DNA of 64,000 nt from an uncultured Actinomycetota bacterium (GTDB taxonomy: Bacteria; Actinomycetota; Actinomycetes; JACCUZ01), in contig OY970120.1 in the NCBI GenBank assembly GCA_963705885.1, positions 98,179-162,178 on the forward strand, in the 5' to 3' direction. Position 1 is the first letter of the stretch. Every line of letters begins with the position of its first letter. Positions 4,265-18,391 of this stretch are shown piece by piece. The position numbers were made by a program, and so were the translations under genes. Under the pieces are notes generated by a model. The model was not told the origin of the DNA, ran no database searches, and worked only from the letters and a program-made list of their open reading frames with translations.

Positions 4265-5623
4265 CTACATCCGCTCGAAGCTGCGGAACCGCTCCCAGTC
4301 GGTCACCGCGGAGTTGTAGGCCGCGAGCTCGACCCTGGCCATGTTCGCGTAGTGCGCGACGACGTCCTCGCCGAACGCGGCCCGGGCGATCTCGCTCCCC
4401 TCCCACAGAGCGAGCGCCTCGGCCAGCGTCTCGGGCACGTGCTCGGCATCGCTGGCGTAGGCGTTGCCCTCGAACGCGTCCTCGAGCTCCAGCTCGTTCT
4501 CGATGCCGTGCAGGCCCGCGGCGATGAGAGCGGCGCAGCCGAGGTAGGGGTTGACGTCCCCGCCGGGAACCCGGTTCTCGACGCGCAGCGACGGGCCGTG
4601 ACCGACGACGCGCAGGGCGCAGGTGCGGTTGTCGAAGCCCCACTTCACCGCGGTCGGCGCGAACGAGCCCTCGACGAAACGCTTGTAGCTGTTGATGTTC
4701 GGCGCGAAGAAGAGCGTGAGCTCGCGCATCGCCGCGATCTGGCCGGCCGTGTACTGCCGAGCCAGCGTCGACATGCCGTGGCCGTCGGCGAAGACGAGCC
4801 CGCCGTCGGTGCCACGGAACGAGAGGTGGATGTGGCAGGAGTTGCCCTCCTTCTCGTCGTACTTCGCCATGAAGGTCAGCGACATGCCCTCCTGGTCGGC
4901 GATCTCCTTGGCGCCGGTCTTGTAGACCGAGTGGTTGTCGCAGGTACGCACGACGTCGTCGAAGCGGAACGCGATCTCGTGCTGGCCGAGGTTGCACTCG
5001 CCCTTCGCGCTCTCGACGGTCATGCCGGCACCGGTCATCTCGTTGCGGATCCGCCGGAGCAGGGGCTCGATGCGCGCCGTCCCGAGCATCGAGTAGTCGA
5101 CGTTGTAGAGGTTGGCCGGCGTCATCCCCCGGTAGGCCTTCTGCCAGGCGTCGTCGTAGCGGTCGCGGAAGACGATGAACTCCAGCTCGGTGCCGGCAAG
5201 TGCCACGAGCCCACGCTCGGCAAGCCGCTGCGTCTGGCGCTTGAGCACCTGGCGCGGCGAGGGCGTCACCGGGGTCCCGTCCTCCCAGGCCAGGTCGGCG
5301 ATCAGCAGCGCCGTCCCCGGGTTCCAGGGGACGCGCGAGAGGGTGGCGAGGTCCGGCACGAACATGAAGTCGCCGTAGCCGGTGTCCCACGACGACATGG
5401 CGTAGCCGTCGACGGTGTTCATGTCGACGTCGACCGCGAGCAGGTAGTTGCAGCCCTCAGTGCCGTGCTCGAGCACCTCGTTCATGAAGTGGTGGGCATG
5501 CAGCCGCTTGCCCTGCAGCCTGCCCTGCATGTCGGTGAACGCGACGGCCACGGTGTCCACCGCGCCGGAGCCGATGTCGGCCCGCAGCTCGTCGAGGGTG
5601 ATGCGACCGGCCGGAGCGTCCAC
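4265..5623 (-). CDS. glutamine synthetase-family gamma-glutamyl-amine synthetase (GlnA4/PuuA-like gamma-glutamylethanolamide or polyamine synthetase)
   Basis: GS catalytic-domain motifs (HxHxS: CHIHLSF; NRxxxxRV: NRTCALRV; GxENRxP region); sits with ALDH, SDR and an ethanolamine permease. Confidence 0.85.
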   Translation of the reverse strand: MDAPAGRITLDELRADIGSGAVDTVAVAFTDMQGRLQGKRLHAHHFMNEVLEHGTEGCNYLLAVDVDMNTVDGYAMSSWDTGYGDFMFVPDLATLSRVPWNPGTALLIADLAWEDGTPVTPSPRQVLKRQTQRLAERGLVALAGTELEFIVFRDRYDDAWQKAYRGMTPANLYNVDYSMLGTARIEPLLRRIRNEMTGAGMTVESAKGECNLGQHEIAFRFDDVVRTCDNHSVYKTGAKEIADQEGMSLTFMAKYDEKEGNSCHIHLSFRGTDGGLVFADGHGMSTLARQYTAGQIAAMRELTLFFAPNINSYKRFVEGSFAPTAVKWGFDNRTCALRVVGHGPSLRVENRVPGGDVNPYLGCAALIAAGLHGIENELELEDAFEGNAYASDAEHVPETLAEALALWEGSEIARAAFGEDVVAHYANMARVELAAYNSAVTDWERFRSFERM

Positions 5624-13794: not shown

Positions 13795-14628
13795 TCAGGA
13801 CACGGTGCGCAGCGCCGGGACCACGTCGTCCAGGCGGAAGGTGGGGCGTCCGAACAGGTAGCCCTGGGCGAGCCGGCAGCCCATCGCGTGCAGCATCGCG
13901 GCCTGTCCGGGCGTCTCCACGCCCTCGGCCACCACGGACAGCTCCAGGTCGCGTCCGAGCCCGAGCACGGCCCGGGCGACCTTGGTGCCGCTGTCGCTGT
14001 CGAGCGCGGCGACGAAGGTGCGGTCCAGCTTGATGAAGGTCAGGGGCAGCACCGCGACGAGGGACAGGGTCGACCAGCCGGTCCCGAAGTCGTCGAGGCC
14101 GACCCCGCACCCGAGCTCGCGCAGGTCGTGCAGGACCTTCGCCGCGTGCTCGACGTCGCCCATCGCCACGGTCTCGGTCAGCTCGAGGCTGAGCGCGGAA
14201 CCGGGCAGCCCGGTGCGCGCGAGCTCGCCGGCCACGTGCCCCACGAAGGTCGGGTCCTCCAGCTGGCGCGCGGAGACGTTCACCGAGATCGGCACCGGGT
14301 GCCCGGCCGCCTCCCCCAGCTCCGCTGCGACCTCGAGGGCCTGGGTCAGCACCCACCGCCCGAGCGGGACGATCAGCCCCGACGTCTCGGCCACGGGCAC
14401 GAACACGTCCGGACCGGGGCCGCCCGGCCAGCGCAGCAGCACCTCGGCGCCCTCGAGGCCCCCGCCCGGCAGGGCGACGATCGGCTGCACCGCGATCACC
14501 AGCTCCCGGGCGTCGAAGGCCGCCGCGAGCGGCTCCTCGAGCTCCCGGCCCGCGATGTCCCCGCCGGGCCACCCGGGCACCGGCTCGTCTGGCGGGCGGC
14601 GCGCGAACGCGGGACGGCGCCGCGTCAC
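13795..14628 (-). CDS. EAL-domain cyclic-di-GMP phosphodiesterase (stand-alone EAL)
   Basis: EVLLRW (EAL-variant), SVNVS, ELTE, DDFGTG, KLD, EGVE, QGYLFGRP motifs all present; GTG 14628 overlaps the TGA of the upstream regulator (GTGA). Confidence 0.8.
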   Translation of the reverse strand: MTRRRPAFARRPPDEPVPGWPGGDIAGRELEEPLAAAFDARELVIAVQPIVALPGGGLEGAEVLLRWPGGPGPDVFVPVAETSGLIVPLGRWVLTQALEVAAELGEAAGHPVPISVNVSARQLEDPTFVGHVAGELARTGLPGSALSLELTETVAMGDVEHAAKVLHDLRELGCGVGLDDFGTGWSTLSLVAVLPLTFIKLDRTFVAALDSDSGTKVARAVLGLGRDLELSVVAEGVETPGQAAMLHAMGCRLAQGYLFGRPTFRLDDVVPALRTVS

Positions 14629-16019
14629 GGGGACGCCGGCGTCGACGGGGTCGAGGCTGAGGGGCGGGTGGCGTCGGCGTAGGACACGTCCGGTGCCGGG
14701 CGCACGCCCGCTTCGCTCAGGGCCTGCTGGTAGGCCAGGGTCGCGTCCCCGAGCAGGCCGAGCTGGGCGAACGCGTCGGCCAGCTCGCGCCACGCGGTCG
14801 CGGCGGCCCGGGACAGGTCGAGCCCGCCCAGCGTCGCCGCCGCCTCGCGGAACGTCGCGACCGCGTCGTCGCGACGGCCGGAGGCCAGCAGCGCGCGCGC
14901 CCGGACCAGCAGGGTGTGCGCGCTCTCCAGCCGGGGGGTCGGCCCCAGGCGGGCGAGCGCCGAGTCGGCCAGGTCGAGCGCCGCGGCAGCGTGTCCGAGC
15001 AGCACCTCGCAGCGCCCCAGCTCGGTCTCGCAGTAGGCGAGGTCGACCGCGCTGCCCACGTCGGCGAGGACGGTCAGGCTGGCCGACAGCTGTCGCCGCG
15101 CCTCCTCCGGCCGCGGGGGCACCGACCGCAGCAGGAGCCAGCCGTAGGCGACCCGCAGGCGGGCGTGGGCGCGCAGGTCGTCGCCCTCGGCGTAGACCGC
15201 GAGCGCCCGCTCCGCGAGCAGCAGCGCCGAGGGCAGGTCGTCACGCTGCTCTGCCACGAGGCTCGCGTTCCAGAGCACGGCGGCGCGGGCGCGCCCCGAG
15301 CCCGCCTCGTCGACCACGGCCAGCACCTCGGTGGCCATCTGCTGGGCGCGCACCAGGTCCCCGCGCAGGTAGTAGCCACCCAGCACCGAGGAGACCAGCT
15401 CGGCGTGGACGTCGCTGCCCAGCAGGCCGGCCTGACGCACCGTGCGGAGCGCGCCCTCGCCGACGTCGAGGGCGTAGGACACGTCGCCGGCCTCCAGGTA
15501 GCACCGCACCGCGTCGACCGTGAGGCGCAGGTGCTCGCCGTGGCGGCGCTCGGCGAGGGCCTGGGCGCGCAGCGACTCGACCTCGGTGAGGGCCTCCTCG
15601 AGGCGCCCGAGGCCCTCGAGCGCGGCGCAGCGCAGTCGACGCGCCCGCCAGCCGTCCTCACGGCCCGGGACGACCCCGGCGCCCCCGGCCGGGAGGGCGT
15701 CGAGCTGGGCCAGGGCGTCGGCGGGCTCACCGTTGCGCAGCGCGAGCTCGGCGTAGTCCAGCGTGAGGCGGGCCCGCTCCGCCTGGGCGGGGTCGCCGCC
15801 TCGGCGCAGGGTGTCCGGGGAGCAGCCCAGCCGGGCCGCGAGCAGGTCGACAGCGGCCGGGGTCGGCCGGCGGCGGCCGGACTCGAGCAGCGAGACGTAG
15901 CTCGCGGACAGGTCGTCGCCGGCCAGCGCGGTCTGCGACATCCCCGCGGCCCGGCGCATCGCGCGCAGCCGCTCCGCGAAGCCCTCGGCGGGCACACCCG
16001 GCTCCGGCATCGTCACCAC
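14625..16019 (-). CDS. XRE-family HTH transcriptional regulator with large C-terminal TPR-like domain (RRNPP/Rgg-like architecture)
   Basis: N-terminal HTH (FAERLRAMRRAAGMSQTALAG...SYVSLLESGRRRPT) followed by about 380 aa Ala/Leu-rich helical repeats; 464 aa. Confidence 0.8.
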   Translation of the reverse strand: MVTMPEPGVPAEGFAERLRAMRRAAGMSQTALAGDDLSASYVSLLESGRRRPTPAAVDLLAARLGCSPDTLRRGGDPAQAERARLTLDYAELALRNGEPADALAQLDALPAGGAGVVPGREDGWRARRLRCAALEGLGRLEEALTEVESLRAQALAERRHGEHLRLTVDAVRCYLEAGDVSYALDVGEGALRTVRQAGLLGSDVHAELVSSVLGGYYLRGDLVRAQQMATEVLAVVDEAGSGRARAAVLWNASLVAEQRDDLPSALLLAERALAVYAEGDDLRAHARLRVAYGWLLLRSVPPRPEEARRQLSASLTVLADVGSAVDLAYCETELGRCEVLLGHAAAALDLADSALARLGPTPRLESAHTLLVRARALLASGRRDDAVATFREAAATLGGLDLSRAAATAWRELADAFAQLGLLGDATLAYQQALSEAGVRPAPDVSYADATRPSASTPSTPASP

Positions 16020-16104
16020 CCCAGTCTCTCGTGACCTCGCGGCCCTCTCCGGCAGTCAGGGTCACAGATGTCATCGGCGCGGTCACGATCGTACTCAACA
16101 ACTC

Positions 16105-16169
16105 TTGACAAGAAGATTGACACCCCGTTACCCGAGCCCGTTCACTCCAGGGTGTCACATCCCTTGACA
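16105..16169 (+). promoter_or_regulatory. promoter/operator region: three TTGACA hexamers (16105-16110, 16117-16122, 16164-16169) and inverted repeat TGTCA-N7-TGACA (16153-16169)
   Basis: Read directly: ctcTTGACAagaagaTTGACAcc ... ggTGTCAcatcccTTGACAcaAGGAGtcatcATG; lies in the 162-bp divergent intergenic region between the XRE-TPR gene and the small peptide ORF. Confidence 0.4.
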
Positions 16170-16181
16170 CAAGGAGTCATC

Positions 16182-16313
16182 ATGCGTCGTACCCTGACCG
16201 CCGTCGCCGCCGCCGTCGTCGCCGCCGCCACGCTCGTGGCGGTCTCGCCCGTCACGGCGACGGCCGACGCCGGGTCGCGGGTCGTGCAGTTCAACCCGCC
16301 GCGGTGCTGCTGA
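16182..16313 (+). CDS. small secreted peptide precursor (43 aa: Sec-type signal peptide with AxA site, predicted 15-aa mature peptide DAGSRVVQFNPPRCC)
   Basis: AAGGAG RBS 5 nt upstream of ATG; MRR n-region, 18-residue hydrophobic core, TATA|D cleavage motif; very high GC3; followed by a perfect terminator hairpin. Confidence 0.55.
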   Translation: MRRTLTAVAAAVVAAATLVAVSPVTATADAGSRVVQFNPPRCC

Positions 16314-16328
16314 GCCACCCTGACCGGC

Positions 16329-16360
16329 CGGTCCGGGCCTCACGGGGGAGGCCCGGACCG
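16329..16360 (+). terminator. stem-loop terminator (13-bp perfect stem cggtccgggcctc / gaggcccggaccg, 6-nt loop)
   Basis: Perfect inverted repeat 15 nt after the peptide ORF stop; GC-rich with no U-tract, typical of actinobacterial terminators. Confidence 0.5.
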
Positions 16361-16396: not shown

Positions 16397-16720
16397 TCAG
16401 AGACGGACGCTGAGGCGCACCCAGGCGCGGCGCCCGCACGACGGGCAGCGCATCCACGACGGGTGCCGGCCGCCGACGAGCGGCAGGTGCAGCGAGGGCA
16501 GCGCGAGCCGTAGGAGCCGCCGCGGCGTGACGACCGAGGTCACGCGGCAGGCCGAGCACTCGAGCGTGACGGCGCCGATCGCCGGCGGCTGCTCGGCGAC
16601 GCTGTAGAGGGCGCGCCGCCCGAGCGGGTCGCGCGGCGCGGCGCCTGCCTCGGCACGGACGGGGGCGGCGTCAACCCGGCGCGAGCGCAGGCGGTCGAAC
16701 CCCTGCTCCGGGGTGCTCAC
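16397..16720 (-). CDS. small putative zinc-ribbon protein (CxxC...CxxC)
   Basis: 107-aa ORF; GTG start overlaps the ParA TGA stop (GTGA); cysteine pairs CSAC and CPSC about 33 residues apart; could be spurious in high-GC DNA. Confidence 0.3.
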   Translation of the reverse strand: MSTPEQGFDRLRSRRVDAAPVRAEAGAAPRDPLGRRALYSVAEQPPAIGAVTLECSACRVTSVVTPRRLLRLALPSLHLPLVGGRHPSWMRCPSCGRRAWVRLSVRL

Positions 16721-17478
16721 GCGAACAGCCCCGCGGCGAGCTCGCGGTAGGCCTCGGCGCCCCGCGTCCGGCGGGCGGTCGTGAGCACCGAGCGACCGGC
16801 GGCCGGCGCCTCGGCGAAGCGGACCGACCTCGGGATCGCCGGCTCGAGCACGTCGAGGCCGTAGCGCCCCGCGACGTCGGCCAGCACGGCCCGGGCGTGG
16901 TTGGTGCGGCCGTCGTAGAGCGTGGGCAGGACGCCGAGCACCCGCAGGCCGGGGTTGAGGATGCGCTGCACGTCGTGGACGGTGTCGAGCAGCTGGCCGA
17001 CTCCGCGGTGGGAGAGCATCTCGCACTGCAGCGGGATGATCACCTCGTCGGCGGCGGTCAGCGCGTTGAGCGTGAGCACGCCGAGGGACGGCGAGCAGTC
17101 GAGCAGCACCACGTCGTACGCCGCGGAGACCTCGGCCAGCGCGGTGCGCAGCACGAACTCGCGGCCCGGGCGGCTGAGCAGCATGGCCTCTGTCCCGGCC
17201 AGCTCGATGGTCGCCGGCAGCAGGTCGACGCCGTCGTCCGTCGGGTGGATCGCCATGGCGGCCCCGACCCGGCCGACCAGCACGTCGTGGATGCTGAGCT
17301 CGACCACCTCGGGGTCCAGGCCCAGGGAGAACGTGAGGCACGACTGGGCGTCCAGGTCGACGAGCAGCACCTTGCGCCCGCGCTCGGCGAGGGCGCTGCC
17401 GAGCGACGCGACGGTGGTGGTCTTGGCCACACCGCCCTTCTGGTTCGCCACGGCGACAGTGCGGGTCACGGCGGCCAT
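16717..17478 (-). CDS. ParA/Soj-family P-loop ATPase
   Basis: Deviant Walker A KGGVAKTT, 253 aa, typical ParA length. Confidence 0.85.
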   Translation of the reverse strand: MAAVTRTVAVANQKGGVAKTTTVASLGSALAERGRKVLLVDLDAQSCLTFSLGLDPEVVELSIHDVLVGRVGAAMAIHPTDDGVDLLPATIELAGTEAMLLSRPGREFVLRTALAEVSAAYDVVLLDCSPSLGVLTLNALTAADEVIIPLQCEMLSHRGVGQLLDTVHDVQRILNPGLRVLGVLPTLYDGRTNHARAVLADVAGRYGLDVLEPAIPRSVRFAEAPAAGRSVLTTARRTRGAEAYRELAAGLFA

Positions 17479-17533
17479 TGTGCCCGCCGGTGCCCCATGG
17501 CTGTCACGGGGAGGGCGGGTAGCGTCCTGCACT

Positions 17534-18391
17534 GTGAGCACACCGCCCTTCCTCGAGCCGCCCGACGGCGTGGATCGAGCCGAAGTCCCCGCCGCGAGCG
17601 GCCGCCTCGCCGCCCTGGTCGGCTCCCCGGACACCCCGCAGCCCCGCCCGCCCGTGCTGCTCGTGCCGGGCTTCACCGGGTCGAAGGAGGACTTCATCGG
17701 CGTGCTCGCGGCGATCCGCGCCGCAGGTCACCCGCTCGTGGCCATCGACCAGCGAGGACAGTACGAGTCGCCCGGTGACGGCGACCCCGCGTCCTACGAC
17801 ATGAAGGCCCTCGCCGAGGACGTCCTCGCGGTGGCCCGCCACCTCGGCGAACCGGTACACCTGCTCGGGCACTCCTTCGGTGGGCTGGTCGCGCGGGCCT
17901 CGACGCTGGCCGAGCCGGGCGCCGTGCGGTCCCTGACGCTCATGTCCTCCGGCCCCGCGGCGATCCCGCACCCGACCGCCAGCAACCTCCAGCTGGTCAT
18001 CTCGGTGCTTCCGGGCATGGACCTGGAGTCGGTCTGGGTCGCCAAGCGGCAGATGGAGGCCCAGACCGAGGCCCGGCCGCCGGCACCGCACATCGAGGAG
18101 TGGTTGCACCAGCGCTACGTCACCCATGACCCGGTGTGCGTGCGGCGGATGGCCGAACAGCTGCTCACCGAGGAGGACCGGGTCGACGAGCTGGCCCAGC
18201 TCGACGTCCCGACCCACGTCATCCACGGCAGCGACGACGACGCCTGGACGCCTGCGGAGCAGGCCGAGATGGCACGTCGGCTCGACGCCGCGCACACGGT
18301 GATCGAGGACGCGGCGCACTCGCCCGCCGCGGAGCGTCCGGAGGCCACCGCCCAGGCGCTCCTGGCGTTCTGGGCCTCCCTGCACCCGTGA
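17534..18391 (+). CDS. alpha/beta hydrolase fold protein
   Basis: GHSFGG nucleophile elbow, C-terminal HGSDD...AAHSP; GTG start 17534. Confidence 0.75.
   Translation: MSTPPFLEPPDGVDRAEVPAASGRLAALVGSPDTPQPRPPVLLVPGFTGSKEDFIGVLAAIRAAGHPLVAIDQRGQYESPGDGDPASYDMKALAEDVLAVARHLGEPVHLLGHSFGGLVARASTLAEPGAVRSLTLMSSGPAAIPHPTASNLQLVISVLPGMDLESVWVAKRQMEAQTEARPPAPHIEEWLHQRYVTHDPVCVRRMAEQLLTEEDRVDELAQLDVPTHVIHGSDDDAWTPAEQAEMARRLDAAHTVIEDAAHSPAAERPEATAQALLAFWASLHP

Follow-up and report, generated by a model that had tools for sequence, protein, structure and literature searches.

The peptide quorum-sensing systems of the RRNPP(A) kind (PlcR-PapR, NprR-NprX, Rgg-SHP, ComR-XIP, PrgX, AimR-AimP and Rap-Phr) are treated as features of the Firmicutes and of their mobile elements (PMC10075063; PMC9765709), and a survey of RRNPP systems describes the signals of Actinomycetota as typically small molecules (PMC10075063). 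In a window of 64 kb (the whole stretch of DNA analyzed, from contig OY970120.1 of an uncultured Actinomycetota bacterium) we find a module of three genes: a regulator combining an XRE-type helix-turn-helix (HTH) domain with tetratricopeptide repeats (TPRs), a small divergent gene for a predicted secreted peptide, and a gene for an EAL-type cyclic di-GMP (c-di-GMP) phosphodiesterase (PDE), which is translationally coupled to that of the regulator. Its architecture is that of an RRNPP system, here in a phylum new to such systems and combined with a new class of peptide and a recurrent link to c-di-GMP, although RRNPP membership by homology is not established. It shares with the above systems a predicted cytoplasmic receptor of 440-470 amino acids (aa), with an XRE-type HTH at the N-terminus and a TPR superhelix at the C-terminus, a neighboring gene for a probably exported pre-peptide of 36-55 aa, whose conserved part is C-terminal, operator-like sites on the peptide gene, which suggest feedback, and the attachment of the cassette to varying outputs. 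It differs from them in its occurrence in Actinomycetota, in matching no RRNPP or Rgg family model, in a fixed [P/G]-x-Cys-Cys motif in place of diversifying pheromones, and in an invariant Cys of the receptor, a putative operator of four half-sites in 11-bp phase and a frequent coupling to an EAL phosphodiesterase. The Rgg/SHP or RRNPP arrangement proposed in a first-pass annotation of this DNA stands with respect to architecture (receptor, pre-peptide and coupled EAL gene) and falls with respect to curated family membership. In the literature that could be reached (subscription journals lie mostly outside it, and absence is no proof of novelty) no report was found of an RRNPP-like system in Actinobacteria, as that annotation had also supposed, or of a link between XRE-TPR proteins and EAL domains, or of a peptide partner for the actinobacterial TPR-like protein NsdA, which is discussed below. 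On comparative sequence evidence, the best-supported reading, to which we give an even chance, is that the module is a conserved actinobacterial cassette working in the manner of RRNPP peptide quorum sensing.

The constant core of the module is the pair of peptide and regulator, to which the EAL link is a frequent but not obligatory addition. We sampled 97 loci with relatives of the regulator at 36-79% identity, 16 of them in species-representative genomes and 80 in metagenomes, the last one being recovered via an identical-protein look-up, and scored as peptide genes those open reading frames (ORFs) with a Lys or Arg within the first nine residues, a hydrophobic core and a Cys-Cys in the last 16 residues. 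A signal-peptide ORF of 36-55 aa with a C-terminal [P/G]-x-C-C lies within 1.2 kb of the regulator, the distance taken as near, in 77 of the 97 loci. Conservation of the small ORF beside related regulators, which the first-pass annotation had set beforehand as the test of its reading, is best judged where at least 450 bp are available on each side: 61 of 67 such loci have it, and three more (L008, L018 and L031) contain frameshifted remnants. The remaining peptide-negative loci are mostly cut by contig ends. The frameshifts (L018 5516-5689, L008 about 4609-4863 and L031 504-764) represent either long-read assembly errors or genuine decay.

Only two further signal-peptide ORFs with a CC tail occur elsewhere in the sequence of the 97 loci. 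Among all signal-peptide-like small ORFs, CC tails are present in 77/212 near the regulator versus 2/164 far from it (odds ratio 46, Fisher P=5e-20). While the CC filter makes the invariance of the two cysteines circular inside this census, neither the near/far enrichment nor an unfiltered listing of all small ORFs upstream of the first 16 loci is circular, and in the latter a signal-peptide-like N-terminus and a PPxCC C-terminal end are recurrent. The peptide gene is divergent to the regulator in 36 loci, upstream on the same strand (tandem) in 33 and downstream in eight. Since gene order thus varies between divergent, tandem and convergent, the pairing of peptide and regulator survives rearrangement, and a constant core of this type with an exchangeable output behaves as signaling cassettes do.

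The pre-peptide gene of the window has 43 codons (16182-16313, plus strand), and its product reads MRRTLTAVAAAVVAAATLVAVSPVTATA|DAGSRVVQFNPPRCC, homologous signal-peptide ORFs with the [P/G]xCC tail being those counted above. The signal peptide part (16182-16265, plus strand) shows Sec-type features readable directly from the sequence, namely an MRR n-region, an 18-residue hydrophobic core and an ATA|D site, where cleavage is predicted by the AxA rule. The 15-aa C-terminal part DAGSRVVQFNPPRCC (16266-16310, plus strand) follows this site. A Shine-Dalgarno sequence, AAGGAG (16171-16176, plus strand), is located 5 nt 5' of the ATG. The GC content at third codon positions (GC3) is 0.93, close to the 0.95-0.97 of neighboring real genes, the locus DNA as a whole being 74% GC; the ORF has already been called as a 43-aa protein gene in public collections (P0121) and, by the census rule, is the sole one with a signal peptide and a CC tail in the 64 kb.

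The family comprises 73 distinct sequences of 36-55 aa, and neither the window peptide nor ten diverse members matched any Pfam or NCBIfam model. All share a common anatomy: a basic N-region, a hydrophobic core of 16-20 residues, a middle part variable in both sequence and length, and the most conserved part at the C-terminus, i.e. the motif spanning positions -4 to -1 before the CC. In this build they agree with the propeptides of RRNPP systems. Approximately 32 peptides end in PPxCC (26 exactly, six with a short tail) and are mostly encoded divergently to the regulator, the window being one such case; in about 37 the ending is G-C-C, after which there are usually R/K-Q or up to five residues, and the gene is on the same strand upstream of the regulator; another eight are encoded downstream. 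Most of the sequences have a good AxA site after a helix-breaking Pro or Gly, while a subset of the relatives lack a clear one; in a subset of tandem-type sequences a Gly-rich linker (…GLPLGGGG…) takes its place. The ribosome-binding region is likewise type-specific: (A)GGAGTCA-N2-3-ATG is near-invariant in divergent-type loci, and GAGGAG or CAGGAG is found in the tandem type.

The 162-bp intergenic region between the regulator and peptide genes (16020-16181) contains ten TGAC/GTCA tetramers versus 1.25 expected (P about 8e-7), making it the densest 162-bp stretch of the 64 kb. Adjacent to the peptide gene these form an 11-bp-phased array of half-sites, a putative operator (16143-16179; TCAC at 16143, GTCA at 16154, TGAC at 16165 and GTCA at 16176), which overlaps the Shine-Dalgarno sequence; further motifs are located on the regulator side (16055-16122; GTCA at 16055, 16061, 16070 and 16082, TTGACA at 16105 and 16117). 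The elements that had been listed at the outset, namely the spacer of this length, the divergent 43-codon ORF, its AAGGAG, three TTGACA hexamers (the third at 16164) and a TGTCA-N7-TGACA repeat (16153-16169), are all present as stated; the hexamers are more readily taken for half-sites of the conserved TGAC/GTCA array than for -35 boxes. When the window and 21 divergent-type loci are aligned on the peptide ATG, most show TGAC at -39, GTCA at -28, TGAC at -17 and GTCA at -6, i.e. half-sites spaced by one helical turn (11 bp) at a fixed distance from the start codon, with the last of them merged with the Shine-Dalgarno sequence (AGGAGTCA). TTGAC is additionally found at about -63 and -75 in this alignment, the blocks GGTCACGA...TACCTGACA and TTGAC-N7-TTGAC recur in relatives, and both palindromes of the array fit TGACTC-N3-GAGTCA. 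In four loci (L020, L021, L022 and L024) an 11-bp insertion shifts the upstream sites by exactly one turn with the phase kept. Tandem-type loci have a related palindrome, TGTCA-N9-TGACA, at -51/-38 upstream of the peptide gene, often with more sites at -28/-16.

An RNA element in the leader was considered and rejected: the inner palindrome positions change with no compensation, GGAGTCA is fixed, and Rfam has no match anywhere in the window. Uncompensated variation, together with the phase-preserving 11-bp indel, makes recognition of the DNA by a protein likelier than an RNA hairpin, and the co-conservation of array and adjacent HTH protein suggests that the regulator is what binds it. As the half-sites overlap the ribosome-binding region, we lean to repression that is relieved or modulated by the peptide. 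Regulon sites elsewhere in the window were not recovered with TGACTC-N3-GAGTCA (at most two mismatches), for which there are two matches versus 2.4 expected. The simpler TGAC-N7-GTCA occurs seven times versus 0.9 expected from shuffles, but the six copies outside the module (16528, 19886, 33894, 45580, 56301 and 59446) are in or overlap coding sequence, and probably reflect an effect of codon composition rather than a regulon.

Downstream of the peptide gene is a perfect stem-loop with a 13-bp stem (16329-16360, plus strand; minimum free energy -46.3 kcal/mol, z=-4.2). The stem is thus as the first-pass annotation had it, while its designation as a terminator needs qualification: there is no T-tract, so that it is not a canonical intrinsic terminator and is likely one without a U-tract. 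Lying between the peptide gene and a convergent gene for a 107-aa protein, it may serve both. Strong hairpins are enriched after the peptide genes of relatives, 33 of 76 being below the 5th percentile of controls (P=7e-12); conserved Shine-Dalgarno sequence and downstream hairpin together give the peptide gene a monocistronic look.

The regulator gene (14625-16019, minus strand) encodes 464 aa when read from the GTG at 16019, as in the first-pass annotation, and 461 aa from the ATG at 16010 that public gene calls use, which we adopt as a correction; its XRE-HTH and TPR domains are confirmed by Pfam (HTH_31, HTH_3, TPR_12 and TPR_MalT) and by an AlphaFold2 model built on an alignment of 65 relatives (predicted local distance difference test, pLDDT, 92; predicted template-modeling score, pTM, 0.84). 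The model has 23 helices, five in the HTH domain and 18 in the TPR superhelix. The XRE-type HTH domain (residues 14-73; 15801-15980, minus strand) is matched by HTH_31 (E=4e-11, residues 14-72) and HTH_3 (E=2.5e-9); its modeled helices span residues 14-24, 29-33, 39-47, 54-64 and 68-73, and Q29, S40, S43, L44, E46 and R50 are invariant in relatives. The superhelix (residues 77-436; 14712-15791, minus strand), modeled by AlphaFold2 and matched by TPR_12 and TPR_MalT, is the putative ligand-binding domain. The family numbers 766 clusters at 50% identity (E<=1e-30), and the TPR residues invariant from Streptomyces to the window are W250-N251 (in YWNASL), W294, C330 and E333 (in DLAxCETE) and R411. 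These are located on helices 242-258, 282-298, 324-340 and 403-419, that is, on every second helix, and such alternate placement of Trp, Asn, Cys, Glu and Arg is as would be expected if they lined one face of the modeled superhelix. The invariant C330 (about 15030-15032) in DLAxCETE is retained in homologs from Streptomyces, Micromonospora and Actinoplanes, and parallels the Cys-Cys of the peptide.

In fold comparisons the regulator model is closest to MalT domain III (score 28.1), the TPR_MalT domain of the STAND (LAL) regulators; generic eukaryotic TPR proteins rank behind it and ahead of the Rap-type matches, of which Rap105 with its peptide scores 23.0, and next come NprR-NprX (19.7), RapI and RapH (about 19), AimR (18.8) and PlcR-PapR (17.0). 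Foldseek agrees with this picture as a whole. Unlike the MalT/LAL proteins, the regulator has an N-terminal XRE-type DNA-binding domain, and it is constantly accompanied by a peptide gene and not by a sugar pathway; assignment to the MalT/LAL STAND type was rejected, since there are neither an NTPase module nor a C-terminal LuxR HTH but only the XRE HTH and TPR domains. In profile searches the family reaches PlcR with E=2.8e-6, family residues 8-193 (the HTH and first TPRs) aligning with PlcR residues 2-188. Of the relation to RRNPP/Rgg family profiles that had been anticipated, this is the part that was borne out; no curated model was matched.

The EAL gene (13795-14628, minus strand) encodes a stand-alone c-di-GMP phosphodiesterase of 277 aa, matched by PF00563 with E=1e-59 over model positions 4-236 of 236. 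The first-pass annotation described it as translationally coupled to the regulator with all catalytic motifs retained, and both statements hold: its GTG (14628-14626) overlaps the TGA of the regulator (14627-14625) as GTGA, the public call likewise giving 277 aa and a 4-nt overlap; QPIV, EVLLR, the N in SVNVS, ELTE, DDFGTG, KLD, EGVE and QGY are all readable; and it aligns to the structures of the active PDEs MorA and MucR with E=1e-45 to 1e-48. Judged by its sequence, it should be a competent PDE, having the motif set of such enzymes (ExLxR, N, ExxE, DDFG, KxD, EGVE and QG). The EAL link of the module is recurrent, though not obligatory. Using an EAL profile built from EAL ORFs (ten were checked against Pfam and all 10/10 were above the gathering threshold), an EAL gene was found beside the module in 40 of the 97 loci, and in 21/42 of those in which each flank extends over 2.5 kb or more. 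Four arrangements can be distinguished: downstream of the regulator and tightly coupled to it (nine loci, in which the junction reads GTGA or ATGGxTGA, or the GTG follows the first base of the stop by 8 nt); straight after the peptide gene on its strand; convergent and downstream; and divergent and upstream, often as two tandem paralogs. The EALs of tandem-type loci are divergent, and one subgroup is without the catalytic Asn and the Asp-Asp of DDFG. Two adjacent EAL paralogs are often seen in these loci (L058 1006-2526, minus strand; also L048, L053, L059, L062, L065 and L086), and one of each pair retains most of the catalytic residues; the paired paralog that has lost Asn and Asp-Asp is possibly not an enzyme but a receptor for c-di-GMP. 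Three apparent regulator-EAL fusion proteins (P0090, P0096 and P0101) proved to be frameshift artefacts with tails out of frame, and not Rosetta-stone fusions.

Links between cell density or development and c-di-GMP have conceptual precedents in Vibrio quorum sensing, where HapR and AphA act on GGDEF/EAL genes, and in the developmental regulator BldD of Streptomyces, itself tied to c-di-GMP. The DNA-binding domain of BldD is of the XRE type, and its TNAC-N5-GTNA box has half-sites similar to those of the module. The present module differs from both precedents in that the PDE is encoded in one operon with a TPR receptor, to which it is translationally coupled, and in that the proposed signal is a peptide. 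It differs from BldD further in the half-site spacing, which is N7 and not N5, and in having no BldD-type pair of c-di-GMP-binding motifs: an RGD (residues 219-221) is near-invariant in the regulator, but the second RxxD of the BldD site is absent.

Under the RRNPP-like reading, the 43-aa product would be exported by Sec and cleaved after ATA, releasing a short peptide of which the conserved C-terminal end (…NPPRCC) would be the active part. This peptide, or a trimmed form of it, would be re-imported and would bind the concave face of the TPR superhelix in the cytoplasmic XRE-HTH regulator. Binding is predicted to alter the occupancy by the regulator of the phased TGAC/GTCA array over the ribosome-binding region of the peptide gene, and probably also of sites near its own promoter. 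The result would be a feedback loop that also determines how strongly the regulator-EAL operon is expressed, and hence the rate of c-di-GMP breakdown.

A number of observations weigh against this reading. With respect to homology, no RNPP_C, Rgg or ComR model in Pfam or NCBIfam was matched at E<=0.1 by the window protein or at E<=0.01 by 65 relatives. The nearest named family is instead NsdA of Streptomyces (NCBIfam NF053720), an actinobacterial TPR-like protein for which we know of no reported peptide partner, and which provides the sole end-to-end alignment (model positions 9-417 of 432). The window regulator scores 22.8 bits against the 75-bit cut-off of this model, and 33/65 relatives match it weakly (best E=4.8e-10) and are taken to lie likewise below the cut-off, the bit score itself being that of the window protein only; NsdA membership was rejected on account of this distance from the cut-off. 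PMC7160387 refers to two TPR-domain proteins, NsdA and NsdB, as being important for regulating secondary metabolism, and titles in its reference list speak of negative regulation of antibiotic production.

With respect to the peptide, the Cys-Cys is constant in every CC-tail ORF recovered and also in every signal-peptide ORF of the unfiltered listing, whereas RRNPP pheromones of Firmicutes usually diverge fast into specificity groups. Such fixity hints at more than recognition, namely at chemistry involving thiols or metals. Many tandem-type peptides have one to five residues after the CC (11 or 13 in L016 and L014), so that a free C-terminal CC is not universal, and some tandem-type peptides are those without a clear AxA cleavage site. 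A consensus scan returned no sigma-70-type promoter. Among the genes directly beside the module no Opp genes were seen, and neither a permease for oligopeptides nor a dedicated protease is a regular neighbor. Across 34 divergent-type pairs, column 368 of the regulator varies with peptide position -4 (His with N/H/F, Tyr with I/L/V and Arg with G), a pattern that is possibly contact covariation but is not corrected for phylogeny; mutual information between the peptide tail and the regulator columns is dominated by variable columns, column 368 being the one suggestive case.

Under the main rival reading the peptide would be the output, an extracellular effector (for example redox-active, metal-binding, or a modifier of surface or matrix) whose gene is transcribed under the control of the regulator, and the MalT-like TPR domain of the latter would respond to the EAL protein, to c-di-GMP or to some small molecule. 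We regard this as possible though on the whole doubtful. The operator-like array on the peptide gene shows no more than regulation of that gene, MalT domain III is the nearest in fold, and the fixed CC points to chemistry and not to recognition; moreover, the EAL protein is co-translated with the regulator, the tandem-type EAL paralogs without catalytic Asn and Asp-Asp could be c-di-GMP sensors, and EamA-type exporters are recurrent in loci lacking an EAL gene. However, adjacency of a regulator to its target rarely outlasts such rearrangement and divergence (36-79% identity, three orientations) without another constant neighbor, and an effector of 12-20 aa without modification enzymes nearby would be unusual. 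Furthermore, the invariant and probably groove-facing residues of the regulator are common to clades whose sole constant partner is the peptide, and sensing of c-di-GMP in the BldD manner is countered by the near-invariant RGD having no second RxxD beside it.

The RRNPP-like reading can itself be extended to take in the fixed cysteines: the Cys-Cys of the peptide and C330 of the receptor might form a thiol- or metal-dependent ligand-receptor switch that responds to how much of the secreted peptide is present and also to its redox or metal state, thereby joining cell density to extracellular redox and passing the result directly to c-di-GMP turnover via a co-translated, possibly physically associated EAL protein. 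This is a speculation that we consider unlikely. Were it true, it would imply phylum-wide actinobacterial peptide signaling with a chemistry not seen in RRNPP systems.

Less probable again is an uncleaved signal-anchor micro-protein in the membrane, whose extracytoplasmic Cys-Cys tail would report redox or metal state indirectly and without re-import. A hydrophobic core of 16-20 residues would suffice to span the membrane, the Gly-rich linker replaces the AxA site in a tandem-type subset, and Cys-Cys pairs can form redox-sensitive vicinal disulfides; but the cytoplasmic part of only three to six residues (e.g. MRR or MNRT) is too short for obvious contact with the regulator, most of the sequences have a good AxA after Pro or Gly, and no partner membrane protein is found in the loci. 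Finally, although spurious hydrophobic, Ala-rich ORFs abound at high GC (297 signal-peptide-like small ORFs without a CC tail occur in the sampled loci), the idea that the small ORF is a chance frame with coincidental surrounding motifs has next to no probability and is refuted by conservation, given its GC3, its uniqueness in the 64 kb, its independent calling in public data, and the retention of start, Shine-Dalgarno sequence, frame and stop across 36-79% regulator identity, along with the enrichment of CC-tail ORFs near the regulator.

If the RRNPP-like reading is correct, the module would bring a gene-encoded peptide signal, read by a receptor in the cytoplasm, to a phylum whose cell-cell signaling has been described as small-molecule based (gamma-butyrolactones and relatives). 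Turnover of c-di-GMP is a central developmental switch of streptomycetes. The outputs of the module would include it, and some copies are located near a SARP-type regulator and biosynthetic genes. Should the peptide instead be the output, it would still stand for a family not described before, of conserved and secreted Cys-Cys peptides with a control system of their own. In either case a sequence rule for locating further copies emerges, i.e. a signal peptide plus [P/G]xCC beside an XRE-TPR gene.

The proteins of the window are found again on a contig of 3.63 Mb as well as in a number of metagenome assemblies, and its nearest relatives are metagenome-assembled genomes (MAGs) labeled Actinomycetes or Mycobacteriales. 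Cultured carriers of the regulator and CC-peptide pair are Actinoplanes sp. KI2 (…GPGGCCPRSDVF…), Streptomyces griseorubiginosus (…GPGPCCKSVEQAFPRG) and S. mauvecolor (…GPGPCCALSGRNAV), and further ones are a Micromonospora (…GPFPCCS) and Allocatelliglobosispora scoriae (…GPGGCCPAPP…). The pair is also carried by plasmid pSMg1-1 of Streptomyces sp. Mg1 (M444_RS35900 and M444_RS35895), the hypothetical protein WP_008741297.1 ending in …DIPLCC. A 68%-identical regulator with an EAL gene is present in a MAG labeled 'Spirochaetaceae bacterium' (JAJAYQ010000108.1); mis-binning is likely here, as all other relatives with a taxon label are actinobacterial. A phage origin was rejected, there being no relatives in viral contigs.

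Beyond the core, the neighbors vary. In the window, two genes converge on that of the peptide, coding for the 107-aa protein, which has CxxC pairs (16397-16720, minus strand), and a ParA/MinD-type ATPase (16717-17697, minus strand); the former is zinc-ribbon-like and has no Pfam match. This gene pair also flanks the module in L002 and L099, the former sharing the DEAD-helicase/ParA synteny of the window while lacking an EAL gene. In the EAL-less loci in general the neighbors are diverse, with EamA-family (drug/metabolite exporter) genes, the second recurrent neighbor, appearing four times (L004 3531-4514, L088 4452-5729, L092 4447-5427 and L097 4433-5425). One tandem-type locus lies between holA and rpsT, and a second has holA directly upstream. 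Streptomyces copies have as neighbors either a SARP-type regulator or a haem-oxygenase-like gene and two ATP-grasp genes, the latter set following the pair in S. griseorubiginosus and S. mauvecolor (L100 6192-9410 and L103 4935-7332), where it may be a controlled biosynthetic output. In two distant loci, Peptidase_S9 (prolyl-oligopeptidase family) genes adjoin the peptide gene (L102 5627-6781 and L104 4394-6205), and their products are possible processing enzymes for the Pro-rich tail.

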